Positions 34,862 through 51,037 of a DNA stretch of 64,000 bases are shown here, one piece after another (position 1 is the first letter of the stretch; each line of letters begins with the position of its first letter). Below the pieces are notes generated by a model that saw only the letters and a list, made by a program, of their open reading frames with translations, made no database searches and was not told where the DNA came from. The stretch lies in assembly GCA_041687115.1 (NCBI GenBank), contig JAWLCP010000002.1, positions 2,102-66,101 of the forward strand, given 5' to 3'. The DNA is from Anaerolineae bacterium (GTDB lineage Bacteria > Chloroflexota > Anaerolineae > B4-G1). A program made the translations under genes and the position numbers.

Positions 34862-37800
34862 CTATCTCGAAACAAGCGGAAGAAAGACAGACGACATCTC
34901 ATCTTGCTCCGCGTCTTCGACTGTGAGGGTGAAGGACTGTGTGGCATGTGGGTCGACACCGTTGCTGGCTTCGAGCGTCAGGGGCCAGACACCATCCGTG
35001 CCAGCATCTGGCGTGCCAGACAGAATCGCTGTGGCGTCTCCGTTGTCGGTGAAGGTGACACCGGAAGGCAGCTCGCCGGTTCCTGAGATTGCTGGGGTCG
35101 GAATACCTGTTGCAGTGATGGTGAAGGTCCCTACTTCGCCAACAGTGAAGGTTGTGTTGTCGTCGCTGGTGATAGCTGGCGCTGTGACGAGTATCGTATT
35201 CAGGACCGCTTCAAGTACAGAACCAGAGCCGTTGAACTTACCAGTTCCACCATAGCCGCGCGCGCGGATCCATAGATTCTGTCCGTCGGGCAGTGACAAC
35301 CCAGTCAGGCGCCAGCCACCCTCTATGCGTGTCGCACCACCGAGCGGTGTGTAATGGATCCCATCCGTGGACAGCTCGAAGGTCACGCGCCAGACTTCCG
35401 GGCTTGCGCCGCCACGCAGCCAGGTGATCCCTTGGCCATTGGGATAGACGGACAGTGTTTGCCCGGCAGCGGTGTTGTTCGAGATTCGGGCGAAGTAGTT
35501 ATGTGGATGACCGTTCACCTCGGTGAAGCAGCCCCCCACCAGGATTCTGCCATCCGCTTCCATTGCCAGGGCCAAGACATAAGAGCCAGAACCGCTGGCA
35601 TCGAGGTCGAAGTCGATGTCGAGCTTTCCGTTGGACTCCAGCCGGCCGATGTTGTTGCTTGACCCGCCGCCTATTTCCGTGAACTGCCCCCCCACCAGGA
35701 TCTTCCCGTCCACTTGTACTGCCAGTGTGCTGACATAGTCGCCGACCACATCCGGGAGGAAATCCCCATCCAGGTCGCCGTCGGGGGACAGCCGGGCAAT
35801 TCCGATCTGTTTCGTTTCATTCACCTCCTTGAACGTCCCTCCCATCAGGATCCCACCGTCCGCCTGCACTGCCAAGGCCATGACAGAGACCCCCACCACG
35901 TCCGGTTTGAAGTACTCATCCACGCTGCCATCGGGGTGCAGTCGAGCGATACGTTCGCGTGTCCGTCCGTTCACTTCGCTGAAGCGGCCACCTATCAGGA
36001 TCTTGCCGTCCGCCTGTACAGCCAGGGTCCAAACAACGTCGTTCGCATCGGGATTGAAGCTGGCATCCAGGGTGCCGTCAGGGTCCAGTCGGGCGAGCCT
36101 CTGAATTGTCACCCCGTCCAACTCGGTGAATGGACCTGCAACTAGAATCTTGCCGTCCGGTTGCACTACCATAGCATTGATGTAAGCATCTGCCCCAGGG
36201 TCGAAGGCGGTGTCCAGATTGCCATCTGAGTCCAGCCGGGCGATGCGGTTACGTGCCTCCCCGCTCATCTGGTTGAATGCGCCCCCGACCAAGATCTTCC
36301 CGTCAGGTTGGACTGCCAGGGCGTCGACACGGCCGTTCGCACTCGGATTGAAGCTGGTGTCCAGGCTGCCGTCAGCGTTCAGCCGGGCGATGTGGTTTCG
36401 TTCCACTCCATTTACTTGCGTAAAATAGCCTCCTATCAGGATCCGACCGTCCGCCTGTACCGCCAACGCCGCGACAGTATCGTCCGGACCCGGTATTGTG
36501 GAGGGCGGTTCTCCCAGATACAGCCGGCCGTGTCCGTAGATATCATCCATCCCTGCCCCGCCCATGTCGACAGCGCGGTCCTCCAGGAAGCTCTGCAATT
36601 GGTCAGGGGGGTACGAAGGGTGAGCGCTCAAGACCAGTGCAGCGGCACCGGCCACGTGAGGCGTCGCTGACGATGTGCCGTTGAACTTCGATCCTTCTTC
36701 CGTACCATAGCTGACGGTATTCACGTTGGCAAAGGCGGCGATGTCGGGTTTGGTGAAACCACCCGATGCCGTACCACCAGATCCATTGGTTGGGCCTTCA
36801 GAGCTGTATACCTCTTGAGGGTACGGAGAACTCACATCCAGTGCTGCCACCGTCACTGCGGACGGCGCGTCTGCCAGGTTCTCCAGGCTGCGGGCGTGCA
36901 AGAGGTACTCGAGACGCGCAACCTTTGGTGCAAACACCTCAAGATTAACATCTCTGTCGCTATCGTACCGCACGATCTGGAATCCGTAGGCAGCTTCTTG
37001 GTCTGTGACGTAAGAAATCTGTTCAGTCGGCCACGGATAGCCACCGGATTGGTCGTTCTCACTCGCAGCTACCTGAACCCATGCAGCACCGTCCAATCGA
37101 AACAGATATAGATCGTAGTCCTGATCGACGTCCGTCCAATCATCCCAGCGCAGGTAGACATTGATCGGCCAGCCTGCTCTGATGAGGTACGCAGTCCATT
37201 CATCACCAGGGCCGAAGTAGTTGACGTTCTGGGTGAGTGAGAAGTAGTGAGTATTGTCGTCGTCCGCTGTATATGAGGGGTTGTTGAAAGGCCCACCCCA
37301 GTGGGCCTCGCGATCATTTCCAGCCGCCGTGAGCCACAGGATGCCGGCATCCCGCGCCTCCTGGACAAGATCTTCAAACTGCCCAGTCCCGTCACCGGGT
37401 GTCAGGTTGAACCAACCCATTGAGGTGGAGATGATATCCACTTGGTGTGTGTCCTTCAGCCAGGCCACAGCCTCTGCCAGATCCAGGTTGGTATTGACCT
37501 TGGCCAGGTACAGGCTTGCCTCGGGTGCGATGTCGTGGATTATTTCAGCACAAGCAGTACCGTGCTCCGTCGTACCATTGACCTGCGCATCGCTTTCACC
37601 ATCCACGAAGTTCTTGACATCCACCGATGGTGGAAGATCGCTGCTCAGCAGGCCTGCATAGCCCAGAAAACCACCATCGATGACGCCAATCTTCACACCA
37701 GCACCGCGATAACCGGCGCCATGCCAGGCTTCGCCGTTGATCACCGTCAGTCCTTCTGTCGTTTGACTTCCGGTACGTTCAACCTCCAAGAGGATGGCCT

Positions 37801-38344
37801 CCGCAGGGCGACGGATGAGATGAATATCATCGTGCGCGGCGACAACCTCGAGCTTATCGATGGGCAGCCATCCCTGGATCAAATTCCCGTCTCTGCTGGT
37901 CTTTGTTACCTCTCCGCCTGCCCCATGGACTGCCTCAATCGCCCCCTGCAAGCTGTCACCATCCGTCACAATCTGGACGTGCACCTGGTCACCTGACATT
38001 CTCAGCGACCGCGACTTGATGAGTGCCCCCTTCGCAGCGGCATCCCCAGCTCCTGCCAGGTCACCCAAGGTTGAATCAAGTTTGGGGTTCCTTGAATCGC
38101 GCGCGGGCTGATCGATGAAATCGCGGTGCCCGGTGAGCGCCTCTGGCGGCAGGGATATGGTCTGAAACGGCTGGTCTTGCTGGGGAATAGGCGCTCCCAT
38201 GCTTTGTGCGTTGCCGAACAGGAGCGTTAATGCCGCCAGGGCAATGAGTCCACGACCGACAATGCGATCTCTATGACCATGCAGGTTCGAGTCCATCTTG
38301 CTTTCCCCCTTCTGAATATAGTATCTGAGCTGTTCAGGCACCAC
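34862..38344 (-). CDS. Secreted subtilisin-like S8 serine peptidase: I9 propeptide + S8 catalytic domain + 7 delta-60 (beta-propeller) repeats + C-terminal putative Ig (He_PIG-like) domain
   Basis: Catalytic triad blocks VIDGG (Asp), HGTACAE (His), GTSSATPHVAG (Ser). Signal peptide after M17; the likely start is near 38296, with an AAGGGGGAAAG RBS. The seven repeats have the pattern ALAVQxDGKILVGGxFTxVNGxxRxxIARLxxDGSLD. Confidence 0.85.
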   Translation of the reverse strand: MVPEQLRYYIQKGESKMDSNLHGHRDRIVGRGLIALAALTLLFGNAQSMGAPIPQQDQPFQTISLPPEALTGHRDFIDQPARDSRNPKLDSTLGDLAGAGDAAAKGALIKSRSLRMSGDQVHVQIVTDGDSLQGAIEAVHGAGGEVTKTSRDGNLIQGWLPIDKLEVVAAHDDIHLIRRPAEAILLEVERTGSQTTEGLTVINGEAWHGAGYRGAGVKIGVIDGGFLGYAGLLSSDLPPSVDVKNFVDGESDAQVNGTTEHGTACAEIIHDIAPEASLYLAKVNTNLDLAEAVAWLKDTHQVDIISTSMGWFNLTPGDGTGQFEDLVQEARDAGILWLTAAGNDREAHWGGPFNNPSYTADDDNTHYFSLTQNVNYFGPGDEWTAYLIRAGWPINVYLRWDDWTDVDQDYDLYLFRLDGAAWVQVAASENDQSGGYPWPTEQISYVTDQEAAYGFQIVRYDSDRDVNLEVFAPKVARLEYLLHARSLENLADAPSAVTVAALDVSSPYPQEVYSSEGPTNGSGGTASGGFTKPDIAAFANVNTVSYGTEEGSKFNGTSSATPHVAGAAALVLSAHPSYPPDQLQSFLEDRAVDMGGAGMDDIYGHGRLYLGEPPSTIPGPDDTVAALAVQADGRILIGGYFTQVNGVERNHIARLNADGSLDTSFNPSANGRVDALAVQPDGKILVGGAFNQMSGEARNRIARLDSDGNLDTAFDPGADAYINAMVVQPDGKILVAGPFTELDGVTIQRLARLDPDGTLDASFNPDANDVVWTLAVQADGKILIGGRFSEVNGRTRERIARLHPDGSVDEYFKPDVVGVSVMALAVQADGGILMGGTFKEVNETKQIGIARLSPDGDLDGDFLPDVVGDYVSTLAVQVDGKILVGGQFTEIGGGSSNNIGRLESNGKLDIDFDLDASGSGSYVLALAMEADGRILVGGCFTEVNGHPHNYFARISNNTAAGQTLSVYPNGQGITWLRGGASPEVWRVTFELSTDGIHYTPLGGATRIEGGWRLTGLSLPDGQNLWIRARGYGGTGKFNGSGSVLEAVLNTILVTAPAITSDDNTTFTVGEVGTFTITATGIPTPAISGTGELPSGVTFTDNGDATAILSGTPDAGTDGVWPLTLEASNGVDPHATQSFTLTVEDAEQDEMSSVFLPLVSR
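35482..36487 (-). repeat. Tandem coding repeats of about 150 nt (7 copies) encoding the delta-60 repeat array within the S8 peptidase gene
   Basis: Protein-level periodicity over aa 620-955. This explains the cluster of spurious plus-strand ORFs at 35.3-36.7 kb. Confidence 0.7.
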
Positions 38345-38387
38345 TAGAGCGCCACAGACGTTCTACCCGCTGGCAGGGCTGTTGCTG

Positions 38388-38969
38388 CTACGGAAGCACA
38401 GCTTGAGCGGCCGGGCGGACTGCCAGTACCGCGTCCAGATTCGCGAGCTCGCAGAGCTGGTCAAAAGGTGCGAAGCCCTGTACTTGATTGCCAGACTGTG
38501 ACCCCAGCTCTACACCGTAATCCAGCAAGAAGCCTGTCTCTTCCCCCGCCAGGACAAACAAGACCTGTACCTTGTCGTCCTTCACCCTGAAGCCCAATTG
38601 CTCGGCCACCAGTGGCGGATCATCAGTCTGAGTCAGCTGATGAAGCTGGCTCTCCAGAGCTGGGCAGCAGTCATTTGGTTCGCGAGACGGTATCGTCTCC
38701 GGATCTCTGCTAAGGTCGCCTTCGACAATCTCGCGTTCACTCATTTGACCATCCCTACCCGGGTGAGGAGCGGACGTCCAGGTACACGCTCCCGTCAATG
38801 CTAAGGAAAAGGCTGCTGTCGCGCTGATCAACAGCAGCCTGACTCCTGATTGCGTCTGACGTGCCTCTGGGAAGCTTCCGTTGTTCTTGGGTGTCAGAAC
38901 TTCCTCCTCGCGTACGCCTCCGGCGTCATCCTGAGGTTCAACGAGAGGGACCACCATCCAGTATCTCAT
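38388..38969 (-). CDS. Hypothetical lipoprotein/secreted protein
   Basis: Hydrophobic signal-like segment ending ...SLALTGAC, then an acidic region with a CC pair. The real start is probably internal, near the LLL codons around 38.84 kb, which would remove the overlap with the next small ORF. Confidence 0.5.
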   Translation of the reverse strand: MRYWMVVPLVEPQDDAGGVREEEVLTPKNNGSFPEARQTQSGVRLLLISATAAFSLALTGACTWTSAPHPGRDGQMSEREIVEGDLSRDPETIPSREPNDCCPALESQLHQLTQTDDPPLVAEQLGFRVKDDKVQVLFVLAGEETGFLLDYGVELGSQSGNQVQGFAPFDQLCELANLDAVLAVRPAAQAVLP

Positions 38970-39189
38970 CCGGATGAGCCGTTTGAGCGTCGGTCCTAAG
39001 CGTCACTTCCTGCAAGAAGGCCTTCAGTGCCACCCAATCACGGAAGTAACGTGCTTCGCCGCTCGACACGTGCTGGACCTTGCCACGCAGTTCAGTCTGC
39101 CCGCCACCCAGGCCTTCTCGCCATAACCGCAGCGTGAACAGGTGTGAGCGGTGCGTGGGTTGCTCTGGATCCACGGTCAGTCCCATCAT
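38938..39189 (-). CDS. Small hypothetical protein (83 aa) with conserved-looking Trp/Arg-rich core
   Basis: ATG-ATG start 6 nt after a GGAGA RBS. Globular composition unlike the GC-shadow ORFs; motif LFTLRLWREG...LRGKVQHVSSGEARYFRDWVALKAFL. Confidence 0.45.
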   Translation of the reverse strand: MMGLTVDPEQPTHRSHLFTLRLWREGLGGGQTELRGKVQHVSSGEARYFRDWVALKAFLQEVTLRTDAQTAHPDEILDGGPSR

Positions 39190-39255
39190 GACGGTCTCCG
39201 TGTATGCACCTGGGTTGTTTTGAATCTCACGGACAATGACCTTGGGGGAGTTCCC

Positions 39256-39927
39256 TCACTCCTCTTCGGCCATTCTTGATTCGACCAGCCGGCCCAGCGA
39301 CAGAAGCCGGTCTGAACTCGGGGGCATCGCAGCTTTCGTTATGGTGACATACGCAACCGCATGTCCTTCTTGCCACAGGAGTTGACCGGCATTCATCTGC
39401 GTCAATTCGACCAGCCTGCTCTGTTGACCGATCCTGGGTGCCCCGGAATCGACCTCGCCCCCGATGTACGCGGCGATGGCATGGTATGCATCGCGAGCAG
39501 CCTCGACGTTGCCGAAGAGGACGACCCCGCTGGAAATCTGCTCCCAATAATAATACCCGCCACCTCGATAGTCGTAGACAACGACGTGCGCCTTGACCAC
39601 GTGCTCATGCGCCTCTGGCACATCCGGGTACACCTCTGCCCAATCCTTGACCGCACGAGTGTTGAACCTGTCGGGCACATCATCATCCTGCAGGGCAATC
39701 CTCGATGGATCCTGCTTCTCCAGCTGGGGACCAGCAGGAGTCCGCGTGGGGTCCGCTGGGGTTGCTTCCCTGATGGCAGTTGGGCCCTCTGTCCCGGTTG
39801 GATCAGGAGCAACCGTCTCCTCTACTGTACTGGTGGGTGGGGCCGCTGTTCGGGTGACCGTCGCGAAGGGTGATGACGGCCCGCAGGCGGCAAGGAGAAT
39901 GACAGTCGCGGGAGCCAGGACGGCCAT
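39256..39927 (-). CDS. Hypothetical lipoprotein
   Basis: The likely start is M40 (MAVLAPATVILLAACGPSS, lipobox LLAAC). Pro/Thr-rich linker, then a globular domain (YDYRGGGYYYWEQ). Confidence 0.65.
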   Translation of the reverse strand: MAVLAPATVILLAACGPSSPFATVTRTAAPPTSTVEETVAPDPTGTEGPTAIREATPADPTRTPAGPQLEKQDPSRIALQDDDVPDRFNTRAVKDWAEVYPDVPEAHEHVVKAHVVVYDYRGGGYYYWEQISSGVVLFGNVEAARDAYHAIAAYIGGEVDSGAPRIGQQSRLVELTQMNAGQLLWQEGHAVAYVTITKAAMPPSSDRLLSLGRLVESRMAEEE

Positions 39928-40220
39928 TCTCCAGTCAGCTGGTCCCCTCGGCTGGCCTCCATGCTCCTTCGACGTTGCGCCCGGATCCAGCCTTCGAGCC
40001 AAAGCCCTGAGCGTCCCTTCCGTGCCTAAGGGAGCCCCTGCCATCTTTGGACCGTGGGCTGCGTGACTGACGGGTCGGCTCTGTGTGTCACCTGGCCTTG
40101 AACAAGGCCTGCGGGTGGAGAGATGGAGGCCAGGATAAGCATCGGTTTGACAGAGGCCAGCTGCGCTGAGGATGGATTCTGAGCCATAGTCAGCCCCAGT
40201 TCGAGTTCTATTCTCTCCGT

Positions 40221-41819
40221 TTACGGAAGCCCCCCCACCACCTGGAACGTGTCGACGATCCGCACGAATGCGTCCATATCGGCATCGCTGACAAGCTGGG
40301 CAAGAACGAAGACGAGGAAAGACCCGTCCTCAGGCTCTGCCGCAATGTTGACGATGGTGCTCAGCCCGCCGCCGCAGTCGGTGTACAGGTCGTAGTATCC
40401 GACGTAGTACCCATCGTCGTAGTCGTATCGCCCATCGTACAGGCAGCCGCCGGCAAAGTTGAAGGCGTCGAGGAGGCTGTACAGGTCGTATTCCGCGATA
40501 ATCACCCTGGATGCACCGAAGAAGAGCCCGGGCGTATCCCAGGTGTCGTTGAAGCCCACCAGGTCGGTAGAGGCAGACACGGCTGCTCCGATCTCTCTGC
40601 CCTCCATCATCCAGGCGCCGCCGTCGATATCGTTCCATTCCCGGGGAACCTCCACCTGCAGGAGTCCGTAGTCGTCGGCAATGAGGACATAACCCGCATA
40701 GCCCGGAGAGGTAGGCTCACCCTCGGCCACAGCCGGGGTCGGGACCACGGGGAGAGATACCACCTCGAGTTCGCGCCCGTTGAGCTGCCCCTCGAGCCTC
40801 TCGCCGGTCTCAAAGCGGAACACGTCGACACTGAGGACGTCGCCGGGGTCGTGGCTGCGCAAGATGTCGCAGTAGTCCGACATGGTACCATCCGTGGCCA
40901 GGATCAGGCCCTCGACGCGGTAGATGATGTCCCCGCCGCGAATACCGGCCTGGTCGGCCGGCGAGCCCGACTCGACCGATGAGACCCAGATGCCGGAGAG
41001 CCCCTCGCCGTCGTTCACGGCCACGCCGTTGACCCCGATCGACGTCACATCCTGGCCAGCACGCAGCTGGTCGATCACCTTGAGGGCCTCGTCGCGGGCA
41101 ATGGCGAAGCACTGGTCGGACAGGTCCGCGCTGCGGCGGGCCCTGTAGTGGATGCCCACCACATTTCCATCTTCTGTCACAAGCGCCCCCCCCGAGTTGC
41201 CCGGGTTGGCGCCTGCATCGTGTTGGATGACCGTGTCGACTGAAGCCCAGTTTGTCTCACCGTCAGCCCGCTCCTTGGCGACGATGCCACGAACCAGGGT
41301 GTACTCGGGGTCGCCCAGCGGGAAGCCAGCCACATAGATGTCGAGACCGGCCGAGACTGGGCCGTCGTACCATTCGAGATAGGGGAATCCGTCGCCGTCG
41401 ATATCGATGATCGCCAGATCGGAGCACTCGGACACGGCCACGACTTTGGCATTGCGGGGCTCGCTCTCGCCACCCACCCAGACTTTGAGCAGCGCCGCCC
41501 CGGTGACGACGTGGTTGTTGGTCACGGCGATCCCTGATTCGTCGATGATGAAGCCAGAACCACGACCGGCCACGTTCATCTGGGTGCCAACGCCGGGCTC
41601 GACGAAACTGCCCTGCGCTTCGATCTGGACGACTGCGCTCTTGACGTCTTCGAGCGTCGTCACCGCTGCGGATGGCGTCTCGGTGGGGGGTGGGGCTTGA
41701 GTCGCTGGTGGGGGCTCAGTGGGCTCCGGAGCCTCAGTGGGCGCTGCGTCTCCGCCACATCCCGCAAGGGCCAGGACCAACACCCAGATCCACATAGACT
41801 TAGAACGGCTGGCACTCAT
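40221..41819 (-). CDS. Trypsin-like S1C (HtrA/DegP-type) serine protease lipoprotein with a PDZ domain and an unusual Tyr/Asp-rich C-terminal domain
   Basis: Lipobox LALAGCGG. Catalytic His (TNNHVV), Asp (DLAIIDI), Ser (GNSGGALV). PDZ region (GIWVSSVESGSPADQAGIRGGDII). The C-terminal 150 aa (YDGRYDYDDGYYVGYYDLYTDCGGG) matches no family I recognise. Confidence 0.8.
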   Translation of the reverse strand: MSASRSKSMWIWVLVLALAGCGGDAAPTEAPEPTEPPPATQAPPPTETPSAAVTTLEDVKSAVVQIEAQGSFVEPGVGTQMNVAGRGSGFIIDESGIAVTNNHVVTGAALLKVWVGGESEPRNAKVVAVSECSDLAIIDIDGDGFPYLEWYDGPVSAGLDIYVAGFPLGDPEYTLVRGIVAKERADGETNWASVDTVIQHDAGANPGNSGGALVTEDGNVVGIHYRARRSADLSDQCFAIARDEALKVIDQLRAGQDVTSIGVNGVAVNDGEGLSGIWVSSVESGSPADQAGIRGGDIIYRVEGLILATDGTMSDYCDILRSHDPGDVLSVDVFRFETGERLEGQLNGRELEVVSLPVVPTPAVAEGEPTSPGYAGYVLIADDYGLLQVEVPREWNDIDGGAWMMEGREIGAAVSASTDLVGFNDTWDTPGLFFGASRVIIAEYDLYSLLDAFNFAGGCLYDGRYDYDDGYYVGYYDLYTDCGGGLSTIVNIAAEPEDGSFLVFVLAQLVSDADMDAFVRIVDTFQVVGGLP

Positions 41820-42037
41820 AGTTCTCCTCCTTACGTTGGTACATGTGCAGACAACCTCGTCGTCCCTTTCTCCGTCAGGGACTGGAGAGAAAGCCGGAAC
41901 GCCCGATGTCCACTCATCATACCAGAGGGGGCGTTTGTAGAGCGTTTGGTGGGGCGCTTACTGTGGCGCTGTCGTGGGGAAAAGCGAATCAGAGGGGCCT
42001 GGGCCAGCTACTCTACAGGAGAGGCTTCTGGGTTTCG

Positions 42038-45000
42038 CTACAGGTAGCCCATCTCGCGGGCCAATTCCAGGGCGCGATTCATGTGCGAACGTGCCACCGC
42101 CGCGTCACCGGCGACTCTCCCCTGAATCGCTGCCTCCAGAGCGCCGCTCAGTTCATCGGGCAGGCGTTGTTGTGGAGGGTCGAGCAGCGCCTGCGCATGC
42201 GCCCATGCCTCGTGCTCCCGGCCTCGCGCCAGCGCCACGGCGATCAGGGGCCACAGGGCCTGCCATTGAAAGGGGTACACGAGGGGCGTCTGTTCCCAGA
42301 GCGCAATCGCTTCCTGGCCGAGTTGCTCCGCTGCGGAGAGGTCCCCTCTGCGCCAGGCGTGCCACGCCTGGTTACCCCTGGCCGCAGCCACATAGTCGGG
42401 CATCTCGGCTGCCTCCGCGCCCTCCTGGGCACGGGCTGCGTAATCCAAGACCGCATCCAGCTGATCCCGGAAGCGGTACAGCACGGTCAGATAAGTTAGA
42501 CTGAGGACTTGCATCGGCACAATTCCGGAGCTTTCGGCCAGCTCGAGGGCGGCTTGCAGGTGCTCCTCAGCCTCATTGAGTTCGTGCCGCCACAGGTGGA
42601 GAAATCCGAGCTCGAACTCACTTTCAACCCGAATTCTCGGGCTGTCCATCCCCTGGCTCAAAGCGAGCGATTCACGCGAGTTTGCCAGCATCCCGTCCGA
42701 TACTGCATACCGTTCCCTCCGCAAGCGCATCATGCAGGAGACCATCAGCAAGCGCTGGCGGCTGGCAGCGCTTTCGCGGGCCTGCACGACCGGCTCTACC
42801 TTCTTCACCAACTCGTCCATCTCTGGCAGCTGGCACAACCAGTAGTGCACCCAAACCTGCTGAATTTGCACTTCAATCCATTCTTCCCACCAGCGGCTGC
42901 TCTCCTCGTCTGGTTGCCTGCCCAGCGTGGCCTCGGCTCGACGGCACGCATCCAACGCCTCCACATAGCGCCTCTGCTCGCAGAGGACCGCTCCCGACTT
43001 GCGATTGAGCCGGGCCCGTCTCATTCGATCGATGCAGCGAACGTCGGCCCCGGCGTCTTGGTACGCCTGCAGAGCTTCAGCGTGGCGTGCCGTGAGTTCG
43101 AGAACGTCACCCAGCCTCTCCCAGAGATCTGCTGCAAGCTCACAGGCGAGCTCCCCCCCTCCTGTCCTTGCCCTATCTTCTTCGAGAAGCATCAGACCAC
43201 GCTGCAGCAGCCCGATGGCGTCCTCGTTGGCATAGACCTGCCGTGCCACCTCGGCCGCGCGTAAGTAGTAGGGCACTGCTCGTCCTGGCAGACCGGCACG
43301 TTCATAGTGGGTCGCCACCTGGTAGCTGACAGGGCCCGTGTCTCGGGCATGGAGCGTCTCCAGGGCCCGGGCCACGCGTTCATGCAGCAGTCGTCGTCGC
43401 CCTGAGCTCAAGCAGTTGTAGGCCACCTCCCGGAGCTTGTCATGGCTGAAGTCGTAGGCGTCGGTGCCGCGCTCTCGCACGATGCCCCGCTTCCACAGCT
43501 CGTCGATCTCGTGGATCAGTGTATCTTCATCACAATCGCTGGCCTGGGCGAGTAACTGGAAACTGAACTCCCGGCCGATCGTGGCCGCGAGCTCCGCCCG
43601 TTCCCGCGCAGAAGACGAGACCTGAGCCAGGCGCGCTTCAAGCACCAGCTGCACCTTGCGAGGGAGAGCTAGATCACCGGACAGATAGTCGTGCGGCGAT
43701 CCTTGCGCCGCAGCGGCATCCAGCCTTGGGCCGCCCGTGGGCAGTCCAGCCCGCAGGGTCTCAACCACGAACAGGGGGTTGCCCTCCGTCTCCCGGTAGA
43801 GGAACTGAGCTGTCTCCATGTCCAGCTCTCTGCCGGCCACGCCCTCCGCCAGCGCCTGCGTGGCGCCCTCGCTGAGTGGGCGCAGGTGGAACTCCGTCAC
43901 CTGTTCGTCACGACGAAGTGCTTGGAGCAGGGACATCAGCGCATGGCTGTCCCCAACCTCCTCCGGTCGGTAGGTGCCGATGACCAGCAGCCGGGCAGCA
44001 GGGTCGAATCGCAGCAGGAAATGGAGCCAGTGCAGGGTGTCCCGATCGCACCACTGGAGGTCGTCGATCGTCAGCAGGAGGGGCTGATTTCCGCCCAAGA
44101 CGGAGCGCGACAGTGCTTCAAAGAGGCGCTGTCGCTGCCAGGCCTCGGTTAGTGGGCCCAGCCGAGGCAGGTCCGGTCGATCGCCCAACACCTCTGGCAG
44201 CAGCCGCGCTACCTCCGCGAGCCAGACATCCTCCAGAGGTGGCAGCGGATGGGCCCGCAGCCAGGCGGTAACCGGTGCGTAGGCCAGCTCGCCCTCAGCC
44301 GCATAGCAGCAGGCATTGGCGGTAGTGATCCCCTGGCGATCCGCCCACTGAAGCAGCTCCTCAGCGAGTCTGGTCTTGCCGATTCCCGCTTCTCCACGCA
44401 CCAGCACAAGATGGGATCCCCCATCTGCCGCAACCAGTCGCCAGGCCCATTGCAGCTGCCTCCATTCCTCGTCTCGCTCCACCAGCGGAGATCTGCCAGG
44501 CGAGGCGAGTATTGGTGGAGGCCAGGCCTCCATGTCGAGCAAGCGCTCGTACGCTTCCTGAGTCGGGCGACTGGGCTCCACACCCAGCTCGCGCTCCAGG
44601 ACGGTAGCGCATTCGTGATAGACCCGCAGTGCACCGGCGCGGTTACCGTTGAGGTCGTGGAGGCGGATGAGACGTCGATACGTCGCCTCGTGCAAGGGAT
44701 CGTCCCGCAACAAGCGCCGGGCGTAGACAATGGCCGCCTGGAAGTCGCGCTGTTCTTCCATCATCCAAACCAGTCGTTCCAGAGCGGCCAGATAGCGCTG
44801 ACGCAGTTCTTCACGGTGGGGGATGATCCAGTCGTCGTAGCAGCTGGGTAGCAAGTCACCCCTGTACAGGGCTATTGCCCGCTCCAACGCCTCTTGAGCT
44901 GGGGCCGAATCGCTCGCTCTGCGCGCCTTCTCTGCCTGCGCGAGCGCGGCATAGAAGTCGGCCACGTCCAGGGTGAACGCGGCGCCCGGCCGCCACTGCA

Positions 45001-45322
45001 GCGTCAATACGTCCGCGTGGAGGAGAGCATCTGCATCCGGTAAGGCACGGCGCAGGTGATAGAGCACGTGGCGCAGGTTAGCTCGGGCCTGGGCTTCGCT
45101 CGATTCAGGCCAGAAGAGAAAGGCCAGATGGGCGCGCGATTGGGAGGCCTCGCTGTGCAGCAGCAGATAGGCCAGCAGTGATTGGAGGCGCGGTGTATCG
45201 ACGCCGGGGACGGGCGTTTCGTCGTCTGTAATGCGAAAACCGCCCAATAGCGAAACGCTCAGCATTGAGGTGGAGTCCCATCGTTCCCGGCCCTTGGTCG
45301 TTACGGAGCCAGGAGGCGACAC
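42038..45322 (-). CDS. SARP/AfsR-family STAND regulator: OmpR-type winged-helix DNA-binding domain + BTAD + NB-ARC/AAA ATPase + TPR array (1094 aa)
   Basis: LLGGFRITDDETPV...RLQSLLAYLLLH (SARP DNA-binding), BTAD block (YRRLIRLHDLNGNRAGALRVYHEC), Walker A GEAGIGKTRL, long TPR/helical C-terminal half. The likely start is M20 at 45265. Confidence 0.85.
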   Translation of the reverse strand: MSPPGSVTTKGRERWDSTSMLSVSLLGGFRITDDETPVPGVDTPRLQSLLAYLLLHSEASQSRAHLAFLFWPESSEAQARANLRHVLYHLRRALPDADALLHADVLTLQWRPGAAFTLDVADFYAALAQAEKARRASDSAPAQEALERAIALYRGDLLPSCYDDWIIPHREELRQRYLAALERLVWMMEEQRDFQAAIVYARRLLRDDPLHEATYRRLIRLHDLNGNRAGALRVYHECATVLERELGVEPSRPTQEAYERLLDMEAWPPPILASPGRSPLVERDEEWRQLQWAWRLVAADGGSHLVLVRGEAGIGKTRLAEELLQWADRQGITTANACCYAAEGELAYAPVTAWLRAHPLPPLEDVWLAEVARLLPEVLGDRPDLPRLGPLTEAWQRQRLFEALSRSVLGGNQPLLLTIDDLQWCDRDTLHWLHFLLRFDPAARLLVIGTYRPEEVGDSHALMSLLQALRRDEQVTEFHLRPLSEGATQALAEGVAGRELDMETAQFLYRETEGNPLFVVETLRAGLPTGGPRLDAAAAQGSPHDYLSGDLALPRKVQLVLEARLAQVSSSARERAELAATIGREFSFQLLAQASDCDEDTLIHEIDELWKRGIVRERGTDAYDFSHDKLREVAYNCLSSGRRRLLHERVARALETLHARDTGPVSYQVATHYERAGLPGRAVPYYLRAAEVARQVYANEDAIGLLQRGLMLLEEDRARTGGGELACELAADLWERLGDVLELTARHAEALQAYQDAGADVRCIDRMRRARLNRKSGAVLCEQRRYVEALDACRRAEATLGRQPDEESSRWWEEWIEVQIQQVWVHYWLCQLPEMDELVKKVEPVVQARESAASRQRLLMVSCMMRLRRERYAVSDGMLANSRESLALSQGMDSPRIRVESEFELGFLHLWRHELNEAEEHLQAALELAESSGIVPMQVLSLTYLTVLYRFRDQLDAVLDYAARAQEGAEAAEMPDYVAAARGNQAWHAWRRGDLSAAEQLGQEAIALWEQTPLVYPFQWQALWPLIAVALARGREHEAWAHAQALLDPPQQRLPDELSGALEAAIQGRVAGDAAVARSHMNRALELAREMGYL

Positions 45323-46072
45323 CGGAGAGCCGCTTCATCCTGCCGGTCGTGGGCCGCGGGCCAAGATGGCACCGGAAAACCTTCGTGGCGGCTATGATAC
45401 TACAGATCGGACGTAGGACAAGACGCGATGGGGGGTCGGATGTCCTCGGGTAATCTCCCCGTCGACGGCCACAGGCGTCCCCGTGCGTCGATTCGTAGCC
45501 TCGCTGACAAGGTTTCCACCGGGTTAGCAGACAGCGCGTCAAGTCAACAGATGCGAGGGGCGCGAGCTCCCCTCGGCAACGCTGACCGAATGAAATCGGT
45601 GGCTTGCCAGGGGACTCCTTTGAGAGCAGCATCCGGCGCCAGGCCCTCACAGCGTTCACACGCCAGCGGCCGATGCCGACTTCGCCAGCGAATTGGGCAA
45701 TCTGGTGACGGAGCGGTACGTCGCGGCGTCGCTCGCTGACCAGGGCTGGTTCGACCATGGGCTGGTGTTCGGCCGCGCAGCCCACTACCAGGCTGTGCCT
45801 TCCACCCCCGGTGCCGCTGCGCCGAGGAGTGCCGCAGGGAGGGGGTGGCTCCGCCACGACCCATTGGAGGTCAGGATCATCTGTCTGCCTGTTACTTCCC
45901 AGATCGGGCGTCAGGTGTGATGGTGACGATAGATGTGCGGGAGGGGGCCGAGTCCAGTGACACGCCATCTGGACGAGTGCCCGTGCTGGACGCGCCGGGG
46001 CTTTCCGTGTATACTTCTCCCTGCGATGCCCGTTTCAGACACCGATACCATGCACTCCTCAACGCGCGATTC

Positions 46073-47344
46073 GTGTTCTGTACGTGCGGCCCCGGGTGCC
46101 ATCCATCCGGAGGCTGGGCTCTGATCCCGCTGCTCAAGCTGATTCTCGTCTTCGCGGGCATCGTTCTGCTTATCAGCCGCAAGTGGAATCTCGGTCTGGT
46201 GTTGCTGCTCGCTACCGTCGTGACCGGTCTGTTGTTTGGGCATCCCCTGACGGCGGTCGGGGTTGACGTCGTCTTAGCCAGCGTCGATATCCTCACCCTC
46301 CGCTTGGCGCTCGCCGTGGTACTCATTATGACGCTGAGCGAGTTGCTGCGCGAGACGGCCAGCCTCCACCGGATGGTGGAGGCGCTGCAGGTGCTGATCC
46401 CGAGTGGTCGCCTGGTCATTGCAGCGCTTCCCTCGCTCATTGGGCTCCTGCCCATGGTCGGCGGAGCGATGTTCTCGGCGCCGATGGTGGATGAGGTCGG
46501 GGACCGACTGGGTCTAGATCGGGAGCGGAAGACGTTTGTCAACTACTGGTTTCGACATATCTGGGAGTATGTCTTCCCCCTCTACCCTTCCTTCATGCTC
46601 GCGGCTGCTCTCATGAATCTGGAGCCGTTGCGGCTGGCCAGCGCGACGTGGCCGCTGACGGCAGGCGCTGTGGTGAGCGGGGTGATCTTCGGATTGTTGG
46701 GCATCTCGGAGAACTCGGACGATGGGCCATCTTCTTCCCGCCTCGAGAGCGTTCAACCGTTGCTGGTGAGCATCTGGCCCGTTATGCTGGTAATCGTCCT
46801 GTCGTTGACGCTGCCCGTGGACGAGCGTGCTACCTTGATCCTGAGTCTGGTCGTCACCATCGGGCTGATGATGGGAGTCAATCGGATTTCACTGGGCAAG
46901 CTGGGAGTGGTTCTGCGTCAGCGAATTCCCTGGCCGACGATCGGTGTCCTCTTCGGCGCCTTGATCTTTCGTCGCGTCTTGGACAACAGCGGCGCGGTTC
47001 ACGCCGTCTCCGAGGCTCTGGCTCAACCATACGTCCCTGTGCCGGTGGTCACGTTCTTCATCCCCTTTATCGCTGGCTTGCTCACCGGGCTTTCCGCCGG
47101 TGCCTTCAGCATCGGGTTGCCCGTCGTCGTCCCCCTGGTTGTCGCTGATGGGGGTACCCTCTCATCCGGATGGGCCGCTTGGCTGATGGCCGGGGGATTC
47201 CTGGGCGTGATGTGCTCTCCGCTCCATCTCTGCCTCTCCCTGACGCGCGTATACTTTGAGGCGGAGTGGGGACCGATCTATCGGCGCATCGTTCCCTCGA
47301 GCATCGTTGTGGCCGTCATCGCGGTGGTCCTGTTGCTCATCTGA
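46073..47344 (+). CDS. Polytopic membrane protein, putative permease (DUF401 / ion-transporter-superfamily-like)
   Basis: 10+ TM; LPSLIGLLPMVGGAMFSAPMV motif. The track ORF starts at 45845, but its first 76 aa are non-hydrophobic; a GTG at 46073 just precedes TM1. The start is uncertain. Confidence 0.6.
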   Translation: MFCTCGPGCHPSGGWALIPLLKLILVFAGIVLLISRKWNLGLVLLLATVVTGLLFGHPLTAVGVDVVLASVDILTLRLALAVVLIMTLSELLRETASLHRMVEALQVLIPSGRLVIAALPSLIGLLPMVGGAMFSAPMVDEVGDRLGLDRERKTFVNYWFRHIWEYVFPLYPSFMLAAALMNLEPLRLASATWPLTAGAVVSGVIFGLLGISENSDDGPSSSRLESVQPLLVSIWPVMLVIVLSLTLPVDERATLILSLVVTIGLMMGVNRISLGKLGVVLRQRIPWPTIGVLFGALIFRRVLDNSGAVHAVSEALAQPYVPVPVVTFFIPFIAGLLTGLSAGAFSIGLPVVVPLVVADGGTLSSGWAAWLMAGGFLGVMCSPLHLCLSLTRVYFEAEWGPIYRRIVPSSIVVAVIAVVLLLI

Positions 47345-47599
47345 CCACGCCCTCCAATCCAGCCATAGGGGCGCTCGGCAGGTGGGGTTTCTTCCAGCGG
47401 CCAGCATGCCGGACAACCGCGCTCGGCCGGACGCTCCAAGTCCGTGCCGGTCGACTTCGGAAGTCTGGCGCTCGCAGTTTCCCTATGTCAATGCCCTCAC
47501 CGGGCTCGGTCTGAGGCTCCCCGACGCGGCCGAGCCAACCCCACTTGCGGAGTTCCGTGGTTCGTGTTACAACTACCTCGCAAAGGAAAAGGAGACCGG

Positions 47600-47968
47600 A
47601 TGCCACTCATTCCACCCACTGTGCTCAAGAAGCTCTACGTCAAGGGCTCGCTGAGGCGCGAGGACGAAGGCTTCGCCTTCGACCTGAAGAACCTTATCGC
47701 ACCCGCCACCATCACGAGCCTGGAGGGCCTCGAGGTGGATGGGGAGCAGGTCGATGGCTCCCGTGTGACCATCGTGCCCCCAAGCGGCAACGCCCGGCCC
47801 ATAGAACGAATCTCGTCTGCCAGGCCGCTCAATTTCCCGGTCGGAGTCGTCGTCACCCTTCACGTGTCCGGTGAGACACTGGAGCCGGGCAAGCACGACC
47901 TGGCCCTCCGCGTGAACGTGAAGGAAATTGGCTGGCTTGATATTCCCGTATCCGACCGCATCGCCTGA
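47600..47968 (+). CDS. Hypothetical protein (122 aa)
   Basis: ATG with an AAGGAAAAGGAGA RBS; the track ORF 47444..47968 has an N-terminal extension. Globular composition (MPLIPPTVLKKLYVKGSLRREDEGFAFDLKNL...). Confidence 0.6.
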   Translation: MPLIPPTVLKKLYVKGSLRREDEGFAFDLKNLIAPATITSLEGLEVDGEQVDGSRVTIVPPSGNARPIERISSARPLNFPVGVVVTLHVSGETLEPGKHDLALRVNVKEIGWLDIPVSDRIA

Positions 47969-48150
47969 CGAGCCCCCAAGAATCGTCCACCATCTCAACC
48001 TCAGTCTGGTCAAGGGGGTCTCTTCCCCACCGGAGGGCTCGGTCGCGAGATCTCACACGATCTTGCTCCGCCTCTCCCCGCTCCTTTCCTCCTTCTTACC
48101 CTCCTCCTCTCTGCCGATGAACTGGGCGTCACGGTCATCGGCCGCGGTGC

Positions 48151-50982
48151 ATGTCGATGGATAGCAGCCGCCGCCGTGGCTGGACGTTCGCCGTTGGCCT
48201 CCTGGTTGTCTGTCTTGCAGCAGCCGCGCTGCGCTTCTACCGCCTGTCCGACCTGCCCGTGGGTATGCACTATGATGAGGCAGCCAACGGCATCCTGGCT
48301 GGAGAGATTGCCAGGGGTGTCAGGAGACCGATCTTCATCCCGGCCTACACCGGCAAGGAGGTTCTGTTCTTCTACTGGGCGGCTCTGTGGATGAAGGTTC
48401 TGGGCATCACGCCCTTCGCGCTCCGGCTCGCGGCAGCTTCAATCGGCACAGCAACCGTCGCGGCGACCGTCTGGACGGTCTACGAGCTCCTCTACGAGCG
48501 CGATGAGGGACTGTGGATCGCGCTCGGTGCTGCGGCGTTCCTTGCGGTCTCCTTCTGGCACCTCGTCCTCAGTCGTTATGGATTTCGGGCCGTCACGCAG
48601 CCCCTGCTCCAGGCGCTCACGGTTGCTGCCCTGTGGCGCGGGCTGCGAACCGCGGAGAGGGGCTGGTTGGTGGCGGCGGGTCTCTTCTGCGGCCTGACCG
48701 CCTACACCTATCTGGCCGCCCGCGCCTTTCCCGTCCCGCTCACCGTAGCGCTCGCGGTTCTCCTCGTCGCCGATCGAGACCAGAGACGGGAGCGTCTCCT
48801 GCAGCTGGCGATCTTCGCCGCCGCTGCTGCGCTTGTGCTGGCGCCTCTGGCTCACTATTGGCTGACCCATCCGGGCACCTTCATGGTCCGCGCCAGGCAG
48901 GTTGCTGCCGACACCTGGGGGGAGGCCTGGAGGGGCTTCCTGGCCTGCCTCCAGATGTTCTTCCTCCGCGGTGATCCCTACGTGCGCTTCAACCTGCCTC
49001 ATCGCCCGCTCTTCCTGCCTGGTGCCGCGGCTTTCCTCGTGGTCGGCGTTGGGCTGGCGGCGTGGCGGTTCGTGCATCTGTGGCAGGCTCGGGTACGTCG
49101 GTCTTCTTCTCTCCCCCTGGCGTCGTACGCCTTTCTTCTCGCCTCGATGCCCGTGATGCTCGTGCCCAGCGCGCTGGCCACTGGGGAGATCACGCCAAGC
49201 AACCTCCGCACCGTCGGTCTCCTTCCGTTCGTGGTCGTGTTTCCGGCGCTGGGGTTGTTTGCTCTGAAGTCGTGGCTGTGGCGCGCGGTCCAGCGAGGCA
49301 GCAGGGAGCAGGGGGGTCCGGCAACCAGACGGGCGCTCCAGCTCCTGCTCGTCGGTCTGGTGCTCGCGGTGGGCACGCCTGCAACCGCTGCCGCCTACTT
49401 CCGAGACTGGGCGTCGTCCCCGGCGTTGTACGAGGCGGCTGACGGTGACCTGGCTCACGTGGCCGACTACCTCAGTCGGGCGGATCTCGCGTCGATGGAG
49501 CCGTACGTCGCCAGCCAACACTATCGCCACCCCACGTTGGCTTTCCTCGCCCACGACTACGACGCGGTGCGCTGGCTCGTCGGAGGACAGACTCTCGTAT
49601 TCCCCGCCGATGGGGATGCGCTCCTCATCCTTCCACGCTCGGCGGCAGCCGATCTGGACTGGGTGGACTCGATGTTGCCCGGTGATGCTCTGGTCGGCTC
49701 CCCGTCGGGCCCTGATCGATCTCCCGACTTCCACGCCTATCGGGTGAGTGGCGAGCACGATCCGACGCCGGCACGATCGCAGGCCGCGAATTTCGGCGAC
49801 GTGGTCCACTTGCTGGGCTACACCGTTCTTGTCCAATCTCGCTCCGGCGACTGCGTGGAGCTGACGCTGTGGTGGAAGGTGGTCGACCTCCCGGATCGCC
49901 ATGACTATCGCCCCATCCTGCGTTTCGTTGATCGGGAGGGCTTCCTGTGGGGGGAGAGCCAGCCCTTTCACTACCCTTCTGAGCAGTGGCTGCCCGGGCA
50001 GGTGGTCGTGGATCACATCTCGATCCCTGTCGCCGCTGGTGCACCACCGGGCGACTACCTTGTACGTCTTGGGTTCTACTCGCCGGGTGCCGACGCTCGA
50101 ATGCCTCTACTCGACGACGGCGGGGCGTACGCAGGGGCGTACGTCGAGCTCCCGGTCTCTCTGGCCCGTGCGAAGGAGCCTCCTCCTGTCGGTGCCCTCG
50201 ACATCCACAATCCCTTGGGCGTCGACGTGGACGGCCTGACGCTGCTCGGGGCCACGGTAGAGGCGACGACGATCCGGCCCGGAGAGCGGCTCCGGCTGAC
50301 ACTCTTCTGGCGCGCGGATGCCGGGGAACTGCCGTCGAACCCGGTCTCTCTCTGGTTAGGTGATACGAAGCTCTACGACGGCGACCCCGTGCGCGGGACC
50401 TATCCCTTCGGCGTCTGGTCAGTGGGAGAGGTCGTCGGCGATCGCTACGCCCCCCGCATACCCCTCGACACCCGCCCCGGCGAGCACCGTCTCCAGGTTC
50501 GGATGGCTGACACCACCGTAGACCTGGGTCGTGTTACCGTTCAGGAGACGGACCGGTCGTTCGAGGTGCCGTCGCTGTCGCATCTGATCGGCGTCTCGCT
50601 CGGGAATCGCGTCGAGTTGCTGGGATATGACCTCTCGGCCGGTTCGGTCGCGCCCGGGGAGACGCTCGTCCTCACCCTCTACTGGCGCGCGCTGACCGAG
50701 ATGAGCAGGGAGTACACGGTCTTCACGCATCTGCTCGCGCCCGATGGCTCGATGACCGGGCAGCAGGACAACCAACCGGTCAGGGGCAGCTATCCCACCA
50801 CTCTGTGGCTGCCAGGTGAGGTCGTTGCCGATGCCTACGAGATCTCTGTCCGCCCCGACGCTGCCGGGGGCGAGCATCGGTTGGAGGTTGGGATGTACGA
50901 GCCGGAGACCGGAACCCGCCTTCCCGTTGCCGGGCGCGCGGATAATGCGGTCCCCCTGCAGGTCGTCCGCGTCGTAGAGTGA
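48151..50982 (+). CDS. GT-C fold glycosyltransferase (PMT_2/ArnT-like, family 39/83 type) with a large extracytoplasmic C-terminal domain containing three internal repeats
   Basis: Multi-TM N-terminal half with GMHYDEAANG (DE motif of GT-C enzymes). C-terminal repeats each ending in TLxWRA (ELTLWWKVV, LRLTLFWRA, LVLTLYWRAL). Confidence 0.8.
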   Translation: MSMDSSRRRGWTFAVGLLVVCLAAAALRFYRLSDLPVGMHYDEAANGILAGEIARGVRRPIFIPAYTGKEVLFFYWAALWMKVLGITPFALRLAAASIGTATVAATVWTVYELLYERDEGLWIALGAAAFLAVSFWHLVLSRYGFRAVTQPLLQALTVAALWRGLRTAERGWLVAAGLFCGLTAYTYLAARAFPVPLTVALAVLLVADRDQRRERLLQLAIFAAAAALVLAPLAHYWLTHPGTFMVRARQVAADTWGEAWRGFLACLQMFFLRGDPYVRFNLPHRPLFLPGAAAFLVVGVGLAAWRFVHLWQARVRRSSSLPLASYAFLLASMPVMLVPSALATGEITPSNLRTVGLLPFVVVFPALGLFALKSWLWRAVQRGSREQGGPATRRALQLLLVGLVLAVGTPATAAAYFRDWASSPALYEAADGDLAHVADYLSRADLASMEPYVASQHYRHPTLAFLAHDYDAVRWLVGGQTLVFPADGDALLILPRSAAADLDWVDSMLPGDALVGSPSGPDRSPDFHAYRVSGEHDPTPARSQAANFGDVVHLLGYTVLVQSRSGDCVELTLWWKVVDLPDRHDYRPILRFVDREGFLWGESQPFHYPSEQWLPGQVVVDHISIPVAAGAPPGDYLVRLGFYSPGADARMPLLDDGGAYAGAYVELPVSLARAKEPPPVGALDIHNPLGVDVDGLTLLGATVEATTIRPGERLRLTLFWRADAGELPSNPVSLWLGDTKLYDGDPVRGTYPFGVWSVGEVVGDRYAPRIPLDTRPGEHRLQVRMADTTVDLGRVTVQETDRSFEVPSLSHLIGVSLGNRVELLGYDLSAGSVAPGETLVLTLYWRALTEMSREYTVFTHLLAPDGSMTGQQDNQPVRGSYPTTLWLPGEVVADAYEISVRPDAAGGEHRLEVGMYEPETGTRLPVAGRADNAVPLQVVRVVE

Positions 50983-51037
50983 CCCGGTGGCAGCAGAACG
51001 TTGTTGTTCGTCGACTCATTGACCCACGGAGCGACTC

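Follow-up and report, generated by a model that had tools for sequence, protein, structure and literature searches.

Results

Gene content of the locus

We analyzed computationally a locus within a 64-kb stretch of the genome of an Anaerolineae bacterium (Chloroflexota), hereafter the window, in which the gene for a SARP-type regulator (REG) is followed on the same strand by a predicted SARP operator and promoter (the box), by genes for exported proteases and lipoproteins, and by the gene for an 83-amino-acid (aa) small protein (SM). The features are collected in Table 1, and L-numbers (L001, L016, and so on) label related loci in other genomes and contigs. A sequence-only reading of the same DNA had listed six minus-strand open reading frames (ORFs) here, and we recovered all six where it had placed them. 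The same-strand run is longer than that, with DegV, GNAT, and MFS genes continuing on the minus strand, and the gaps after start correction are 218, 293, 66, and 91 nucleotides (nt). The absence of biosynthetic genes from the run, also claimed earlier, was borne out by Pfam domain content: no biosynthetic enzyme domain occurs across 30891–52612, an interval that runs from the MFS gene through the lactate-permease gene and is occupied by proteases, lipoproteins, DegV, GNAT, MFS, DUF401, and lactate permease.

Table 1. Features of the regulator locus, in window coordinates
Feature	Coordinates	Strand	Description
Candidate sigma-70-like promoter of REG gene	45394..45421	minus	TTGTCC-16-TATCAT; consensus scan only, weak evidence
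REG	42038..45265	minus	1075 aa from likely ATG 45265; ORF opens at GTG 45322 (1094 aa)
Predicted SARP operator and promoter (box)	41916..41971	minus	Four phased heptamers, 8-nt spacer, extended -10
HtrA/DegP-like serine protease	40221..41819	minus	532 aa; first gene behind box
Lipoprotein, unnamed family	39256..39927	minus	223 aa from likely ATG 39927 (ORF 262 aa); signal MAVLAPATVILLAAC
SM	38938..39189	minus	83-aa conserved cytoplasmic small protein
Lipoprotein (lipobox LTGAC)	38388..38969	minus	193 aa; partner of following S8 gene
Hairpin	38810..38840	minus	12-bp stem, then TTTTCCTT (T-tract); terminator scan; RNA fold z = -2.7
Secreted subtilase (S8)	34862..38296	minus	1144 aa from likely ATG 38296 (ORF 1160 aa); GGGGGA ribosome-binding site

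REG joins a SARP domain to a STAND ATPase and TPRs

REG begins with a SARP domain (an OmpR-type winged helix-turn-helix (wHTH) plus BTAD, approximately residues 1–262), which is followed by a AAA_16 P-loop STAND ATPase and C-terminal TPRs. Pfam matched BTAD (E 4e-22), AAA_16 (E 3e-21) and, weakly, Trans_reg_C (E 0.008), together with TPR_12 (E 3.5e-9), TPR_2, and TPR_1 at approximately residues 900–1010. Both ATPase motifs are intact (Walker A, GEAGIGKT; Walker B, LLLTIDDLQWCD). A phmmer search of the PDB aligned residues 6–245 with AfsR (8HVR, 8K60, 8JKE) and EmbR (2FEZ) at E-values from 1e-12 to 5e-9 (1.4e-12 for 8HVR, 5e-9 for 2FEZ), with the full-length AfsR chains 8K60 and 8JKE aligning over the SARP domain only. 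Residues 253–685 matched the ATPase region of the TOMM kinase/cyclase fusion family TIGR03903 (NCBIfam, E 3e-54). Pfam returned no NB-ARC match at E ≤ 0.01, giving instead AAA_16, AAA_22, and a sub-threshold NACHT, and no GerE/LuxR match. The layout proposed earlier, OmpR-wHTH, BTAD, NB-ARC, and TPR, therefore stands for the SARP domain, the STAND-type ATPase, and the TPRs and needs revision for NB-ARC, the module being AAA_16/LAL-like.

REG has more than 6,500 homologs, mostly of 1070–1076 aa, and those with names come from Anaerolineae/Chloroflexota; JGI automatic annotation already calls REG homologs 'SARP family'. Neither REG nor SM had a PADLOC match, and we rejected an identity as an Avs-like anti-phage STAND defense system. 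Some loci carry REG paralogs in tandem, with three in a row in L173 (1057–11285). On sister contig L166 (98% identical), approximately 700 nt corresponding to window positions 42226–42929, in the TPR-coding part of REG, are missing. The product there has 802 aa, and the loss could reflect natural truncation or a fault of the assembly.

A single SARP-type box follows the regulator gene

The box begins 66 nt past the REG stop codon and ends 96 nt ahead of the HtrA-like gene. It reads CAGCGCC-N5-AAGCGCC-N5-AAACGCT-N4-AAACGCC-N8-TATGAT, with heptamers at 41971–41965, 41959–41953, 41947–41941, and 41936–41930 whose starts lie 12, 12, and 11 nt apart. The -10 element (41921–41916) has a TG ahead of it, forming an extended -10 (TGgTATGAT), and the box contains no -35-like hexamer. 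A regular expression (two A[AG]CG heptamers, 7–9 nt, TAnnnT) matched once in the window against 0.005 matches expected. A position weight matrix (PWM) built from 109 distinct sites in related loci gave the box 43.2 bits and the runner-up in the window 1.8 bits; in this matrix, positions that the regular expression leaves free are conserved too, namely T at +5/+6/+7 of the repeat and the TG before the -10. A motif-free scan for phased heptamer pairs found eight pairs in 41820–42037, compared with a shuffle mean of 1.1.

The earlier suggestion had been that each gene of the run may own a SARP box, with direct repeats to be sought in four named gaps. Repeats with an 11-nt period, the proximal one 8 nt from the -10, were present in 41820–42037 and absent from the other three. 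No box was found in the other intergenic gaps by regular expression or PWM, phased heptamer pairs there were at shuffle level, and the rest of the 64 kb scored at most 1.8 bits, so the suggestion holds for just one of the four gaps. Upstream of REG, too, the regular expression, the PWM, and generic phased-heptamer scans found no SARP box.

At SARP promoters, 8 bp separate the 3' repeat from the -10 and the repeats recur every 11 or 22 bp (PMC10936776), and operators of SARP and SARP-LAL regulators typically consist of heptamers with 4-bp spacers (PMC3367932). In silico, positions 41916–41947 of the box (AAACGCT-N4-AAACGCC-N8-TATGAT) match this published geometry. Two sister strains have exactly the window's repeats and -10, and the surrounding gap varies by 5.5%. 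One of the two has a 1-nt deletion in a C-run (L165:2810 versus window 41922–41929), which leaves the repeats and the -10 unaltered. Separately, a loose version of the box expression caught five tandem 26-nt units (AGCGGCGCCAAAGCGCCGCAAGCY) beside an SM gene in L073 (341–445, minus strand); these are not of the SARP-box type.

Regulator, box, and SM are linked across Chloroflexota

We asked how often box, regulator, and SM occur together elsewhere, counting a box as linked to a regulator gene if it lay between -60 and +600 nt of the stop codon. Such a box followed 30 of 53 regulator genes from SM-seeded loci and 34 of 57 from REG-seeded loci (64/110 together), typically 30–140 nt off. Over 1.24 Mb of loci we counted 79 boxes, compared with 4.1 in shuffles. 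Seen from the small protein, 62 of 87 SM copies had a same-strand box at most 3 kb upstream, which in 35 of these was within 300 nt.

A genome scan seeded with SM only yielded 80 loci, almost all from Chloroflexota (Anaerolineae, Caldilineae, Ardenticatenia, Chloroflexia, and Ktedonobacteria), and 61 of them have at least 6.5 kb of upstream flank. A SARP-type regulator was present somewhere in 51 of these 61 full-flank loci; the REG homolog lay upstream of SM on the same strand in 41, immediately downstream in 4, and divergently in 3. In the reverse direction, look-ups of three REG homologs showed variable neighbors, with an ORF carrying the motif SHLFTLRLWxEdLGGG..WRGKVQHVnSGEaRYFrDW, which is that of the window's SM, downstream in two of the three; the contig of the third stops 2.7 kb past the regulator. 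SM was downstream in five of six informative REG-seeded protein look-ups, and close full-length relatives of REG nearly always had it. The heptamers also differ among REG subfamilies (AACGCT, AGCGCT, AACGTT...TAACGCC), a split that fits co-evolution of the box with the adjoining regulator. We conclude that the evolutionarily conserved unit is REG, box, and SM, and that the other genes are interchangeable cargo.

Tandem regulator genes, and boxes or SM genes present two or three times in one locus, were noted among L017, L061, L062, L068, L074, and L173; a number of loci show such repetition, and many metagenome-assembled genomes supply two or three separate SM loci. Two SM domains occur in a single polypeptide in L173 (11681–12244) and in P0228. 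In two loci of distant relatives, a different conserved ORF (MYYRVAIQVDPLPTWQWRSTVLSSL..., L133:7057–7434 and 9469–10053, L134:7868–8416) comes after the box and may represent another partner family.

SM is a conserved small protein without a named family

Judged by its homologs, the 83-aa ORF is a real gene. Its core reads SHLFTLRLWxEgLGGGQTelRGKVQHVsSGEARYFRDWvaLkAFL and is predicted, with confidence, to fold as a beta-hairpin, a strand, and a helix. Word indexing retrieved 95 homologs, all 'hypothetical' and none with a Pfam match, and the unnamed family comprises 3,379 representatives of 50%-identity clusters at E ≤ 1e-3 (922 at E ≤ 1e-10), typically of 65–120 aa. Across classes SM is 45–60% identical, and its alignment has six invariant positions, with R, W, E, and G among the invariant residues, and 18–19 nearly invariant ones. 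The 83-aa ORF had been treated as a minor item in the sequence-only reading; instead, it alone among the genes accompanies both regulator and box. Like the 262-aa and 193-aa ORFs, it has no Pfam or NCBIfam match. Longer database matches were considered as SM domain fusions and set aside as uninformative, being tandem duplications or probable frameshift fusions with a neighboring SnoaL-like gene. In L003 (2751–2969), a 72-aa ORF (YTIRIKGHLDARWSAWFAGL...DQSALHGLLARVRDLNLTLEAV) adjoins two MalT/LuxR-type STAND regulators.

The genes between box and SM differ among loci

The first gene behind the box, preceded by an AGGAGG ribosome-binding site ahead of its ATG, encodes a protein with Trypsin_2 (E 1e-24) and PDZ_6 domains (Pfam) and an extra C-terminal region of approximately 190 aa. 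All NCBIfam Do/HtrA models scored under cut-off (TIGR02037, 130 bits against a cut-off of 416). Trypsin_2 and PDZ agree with the earlier assignment as an HtrA-like S1 protease, to which we add the correction that the protein is itself a lipoprotein, carrying its own signal LALAGC (lipobox LAGC). For the next gene, we compared the 262-aa ORF with that of a sister strain 97.5% identical to the window, finding seven mismatches from codon 39 on (1.0%), five of them at third positions, and 3.5–4% divergence upstream. The likely start is the ATG at codon 40; it is uncertain, and the gene caller on the sister contig gave only 140 aa. The 293 nt between the HtrA-like gene and this lipoprotein gene (39928–40220) diverge from the sister strain at intergenic rates (3.5–4%).

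The HtrA-like and 223-aa lipoprotein genes occupy the slot between box and SM only here and on the near-identical sister contigs L165 and L166. We did not find this arrangement in approximately 160 other related loci, in which the HtrA-like gene had weak matches only, on the opposite strand or distant (L001, L116, L134), and the 262-aa lipoprotein had no match other than in the near-identical sisters. With its arrangement limited to these strains, the dedicated protease or surface-remodeling regulon proposed earlier is not conserved. The exported products of the run had also been pointed out, and by locus comparison the genes behind the box often encode exported proteins across relatives too. 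In the nearest subfamily the usual order is REG, box, an approximately 150-aa secreted protein, a 300-aa NmrA-like protein, and SM 10–16 nt on; in other loci SM itself comes first behind the box, and the next gene differs in most. By a simple heuristic, about half of the genes after SM encode a hydrophobic N-terminal segment or a lipobox, and the families found there include CarboxypepD_reg, LVIVD, PAP2, beta-lactamase, SdrD_B, CBM96/beta-helix, and lipoproteins.

A lipoprotein–subtilase pair and a hairpin lie downstream of SM

The 193-aa ORF after SM belongs, judged by its homologs, to a real lipoprotein family, and its C-terminal approximately 85 residues have a subtilase-propeptide (I9-like) fold as a free-standing protein. 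Its start is uncertain (ATG 38969 or 38957, or a TTG), and from the first ATG it overlaps the SM ORF by 32 nt; a GTG start near 38843 was discarded, the codon there being GTC. The S8 protein that follows consists of a signal peptide, a propeptide-like N-terminal region, Peptidase_S8, a seven-bladed DUF5122/delta-60 propeller, and a He_PIG Ig domain (Pfam, NCBIfam). A homolog of its first approximately 600 residues (50–64% identity) stands directly after SM in L016 and L018, with a gap of approximately 110 nt; other S8 matches in REG- or SM-related loci cover the propeller only. The 193-aa lipoprotein has no match in those loci, and its family is found elsewhere: in three other loci, which lack REG, SM, and box, a lipoprotein gene lies upstream of a Peptidase_S8 gene, directly so in L167 (GCA_046497135.1, a paralogous lipoprotein–S8 locus) and L169. 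Because the pair occurs in such loci, we regard it as an independent two-gene module, probably a membrane-anchored trans-propeptide or inhibitor plus its protease. Compared with subtilase pro-domains and I9 inhibitors, the 193-aa protein differs in being a separate lipid-anchored polypeptide, with S8 retaining its own N-terminal propeptide-like region. A 65-aa ORF beside the pair in L167 was considered as an SM copy and proved to be a transposase fragment.

The hairpin lies 98 nt past the SM stop codon, within the signal-peptide codons of the 193-aa ORF; it may serve as a partial terminator or attenuator, or may have arisen by chance. Consensus, PWM, and phased-repeat scans found no promoter-like site or box in the gaps from the HtrA-like gene to the S8 gene. 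Elsewhere, the whole window contains no Rfam family and no tRNA. AT skew is strongly negative (down to -0.31) at 46000–52000, over plus-strand genes, and a 943-aa polytopic membrane protein encoded there (48151–50982, plus strand) has no Pfam match and an ArnT/PMT-type glycosyltransferase-like N-terminus.

Discussion

A proposed switch

We consider it likely that REG is a SARP-type STAND activator driving a single promoter after its own gene, with REG, box, and SM as the conserved parts; because these three form the conserved unit, SM would be the constant output of the switch. We modeled the mechanism on AfsR at afsS (PMC10936776) and PimR at pimM (PMC3367932). The AAA_16/TPR part would gate the SARP domain in response to some ligand or modification, and switched-on SARP domains would line up next to one another on the phased heptamers (consensus aAACGCT) at 41930–41971. 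With the heptamers in the -35 position, 8 nt from the extended -10, bound REG would recruit RNA polymerase, in the way demonstrated for AfsR on the afsS promoter, and a transcript beginning approximately 90 nt ahead of the HtrA-like gene would carry the genes for the HtrA-like lipoprotein, the 223-aa lipoprotein, and SM. Read-through beyond the hairpin into the propeptide-lipoprotein/S8 pair may also occur. As for SM, analogy points most probably to a downstream effector in the manner of AfsS, or else to a partner that feeds back on REG.

A broader version, which we put forward more tentatively, makes the unit a phylum-wide, multi-copy cassette in which a non-actinobacterial SARP-LAL switch cannot do without SM as its second component and the interval from box to SM is a portable socket for inserted genes. 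SM could then be either an output that, like AfsS, works on the transcription machinery, or a ligand through which feedback reaches the TPR sensor.

Relation to known SARP and STAND regulators

A review describes SARPs as 'exclusively found in actinobacteria' and as tied to antibiotic or other biosynthetic clusters (PMC10972967). REG falls outside these limits, with homologs in Anaerolineae, Caldilineae, Ardenticatenia, Chloroflexia, and Ktedonobacteria and no biosynthetic cluster, and the literature library that we searched contained nothing relevant linking SARP or BTAD regulators with Chloroflexi/Chloroflexota or Anaerolineae. Insofar as protein and operator sequences can tell, REG has the domain and operator geometry of a SARP and the architecture of a SARP-LAL regulator, and it lacks the NB-ARC module of the AfsR type.

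With the AfsR–AfsS system of Streptomyces the locus shares an N-terminal SARP domain detectable by sequence, followed by a STAND ATPase and TPRs; direct repeats in place of the -35, the nearest of them 8 bp away from the -10 (PMC10936776); and a gene for a small cytoplasmic protein that adjoins the regulator behind that promoter (PMC10972967). The two differ in phylum (Actinobacteria versus Chloroflexota), in the ATPase (NB-ARC in AfsR, AAA_16/LAL-like in REG), and in the repeat, which is CGTT(T/C)ATCG for AfsR and AAACGCT here. Here, moreover, exported-protein genes share the promoter, there is no biosynthetic cluster, and a genome carries several copies of the module. SM is predicted to be a folded beta-hairpin/helix domain and AfsS is a short protein that contains repeats, a distinction drawn from the fold description only.

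SARP-LAL regulators combine a SARP domain with an ATP-binding half homologous to guanylate-cyclase/LAL ATPases and have no LuxR helix-turn-helix (PMC3367932). Because REG matches AAA_16 and TIGR03903 and has no GerE match, this layout fits it, and it appears to share its domain architecture with PimR, SanG, PolR, and FilR/PteR of Streptomyces, a likeness drawn from architecture and from descriptions of PimR and SanG. Further likenesses are an operator of heptameric direct repeats, two or three of them set 4 bp apart in the SARP-LAL case, and a target promoter that adjoins the regulator gene. PimR differs in that it targets another regulator gene, pimM, which is part of an antibiotic cluster, from a site clear of the -35; the site here has a class-II-like position, the predicted targets are exported proteins and SM, and the phylum is another. 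STAND activators of the MalT/GutR type likewise have a AAA_16-type P-loop and a helical-repeat sensor controlling a DNA-binding domain, which in them is C-terminal and LuxR-type and in REG N-terminal and OmpR/SARP-type. For that class, ligand- and ATP-driven oligomerization on arrays of repeated sites is the established model.

Points against the proposed switch, and alternatives

Several observations weigh against the switch as drawn. No regulator was found within 10 kb in 10 of the 61 full-flank SM-seeded loci. Among distant REG relatives, SM was detected in just 8 of 58 REG-seeded metagenome loci with at least 1.5 kb of downstream flank, and their boxes precede genes for FAD oxidases, SnoaL-like proteins, methyltransferases, or secreted proteins. 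Since these relatives mostly lack a detected SM and have other genes behind the box, the regulator class can exist without SM. Structure comparison of SM returned nothing informative, so the role we give it is a guess by analogy. At the locus itself, the spacer is 7 nt rather than 8 nt in one sister strain (L165), the 293-nt gap at 39928–40220 contains no recognized signal in box, promoter, or Rfam scans, the hairpin and T-tract after SM may end the transcript ahead of the S8 pair, and that pair occurs elsewhere without any box. Finally, repeats phased at 11 nt also serve response regulators of the OmpR/PhoB type, and at afsS PhoP is a competitor of AfsR (PMC10972967); for these two reasons another protein could use the box.

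The alternative that survives best concerns the extent of the operon: the SARP transcript would stop at the hairpin after SM, REG would control only the HtrA-like, 223-aa lipoprotein, and SM genes, and the lipoprotein–S8 pair would be independent. We hold this possible, if somewhat doubtful. The 12-bp hairpin with its T-tract 98 nt past the SM stop speaks for it, as does conservation of the pair in loci without REG, SM, or box; however, the scans found no promoter-like site or box between SM and S8, the lipoprotein overlaps SM by 32 nt if its first ATG is used, the hairpin sits inside signal-peptide codons that homologs mark as real coding sequence, and an S8 homolog follows SM by approximately 110 nt in L016 and L018.

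It is very unlikely, in our estimate, that the repeats serve another regulator, such as one of the PhoB/OmpR family, as its operator, with REG incidentally adjacent and acting elsewhere. Phased 11-nt direct repeats over the -35 are typical of such sites too, and PhoP and AfsR share the afsS site (PMC10972967), but 64 of 110 independent regulator genes have a box no more than a few hundred nt from their stop codon, REG is followed by a box also in loci without SM, and the heptamers vary by REG subfamily. Returning to the dedicated extracellular-proteolysis regulon with a SARP box for each gene, we now give it scant probability. The intergenic gaps are long enough for promoters and the products are exported proteases and lipoproteins, but there is a single box in 64 kb, the other gaps have phased repeats only as often as shuffled sequence does, and the HtrA-like and 262-aa lipoprotein genes are missing from approximately 160 related loci except near-identical strains; in silico, this reading is largely refuted.

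In RRNPP systems (Rap/Phr, NprR/NprX, PlcR/PapR), a small ORF follows the gene of a TPR regulator. That SM is a secreted signaling pro-peptide of this kind, sensed by the TPR domain, is suggested by the same-strand small ORF near a TPR regulator gene and has next to no chance of being right: SM has no signal peptide or hydrophobic N-terminus, which together with its confidently predicted, compact folded core led us to reject a quorum-peptide identity, it is too well conserved across classes (45–60%) for a fast-diverging pro-peptide, and one to three genes often separate it from REG.

Implications

The proposed SARP switch joins known and new elements. The SARP activator principle is already known; we propose it for a phylum new to it, together with an operator defined in this work, a promoter adjoining the regulator's own gene, an unnamed family of small-protein partners, and exchangeable exported cargo. 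A SARP-LAL-type family with thousands of Chloroflexota members thereby comes with a testable operator, a self-adjacent target promoter, and a constant small-protein partner. For Anaerolineae and Caldilineae, which are difficult to cultivate and plentiful in wastewater and sediments, this yields a regulon predictor, and for the window it predicts which exported proteases answer one signal. It also offers a second independent case of the poorly understood AfsR-to-AfsS logic, which could help to explain such small proteins, and a natural 'socket' promoter for synthetic control. If the cassette reading is true, it would overturn the view of SARPs as an actinomycete specialty tied to antibiotic clusters, and any gene inserted between box and SM, here those for proteases and lipoproteins, would come under the same signal.

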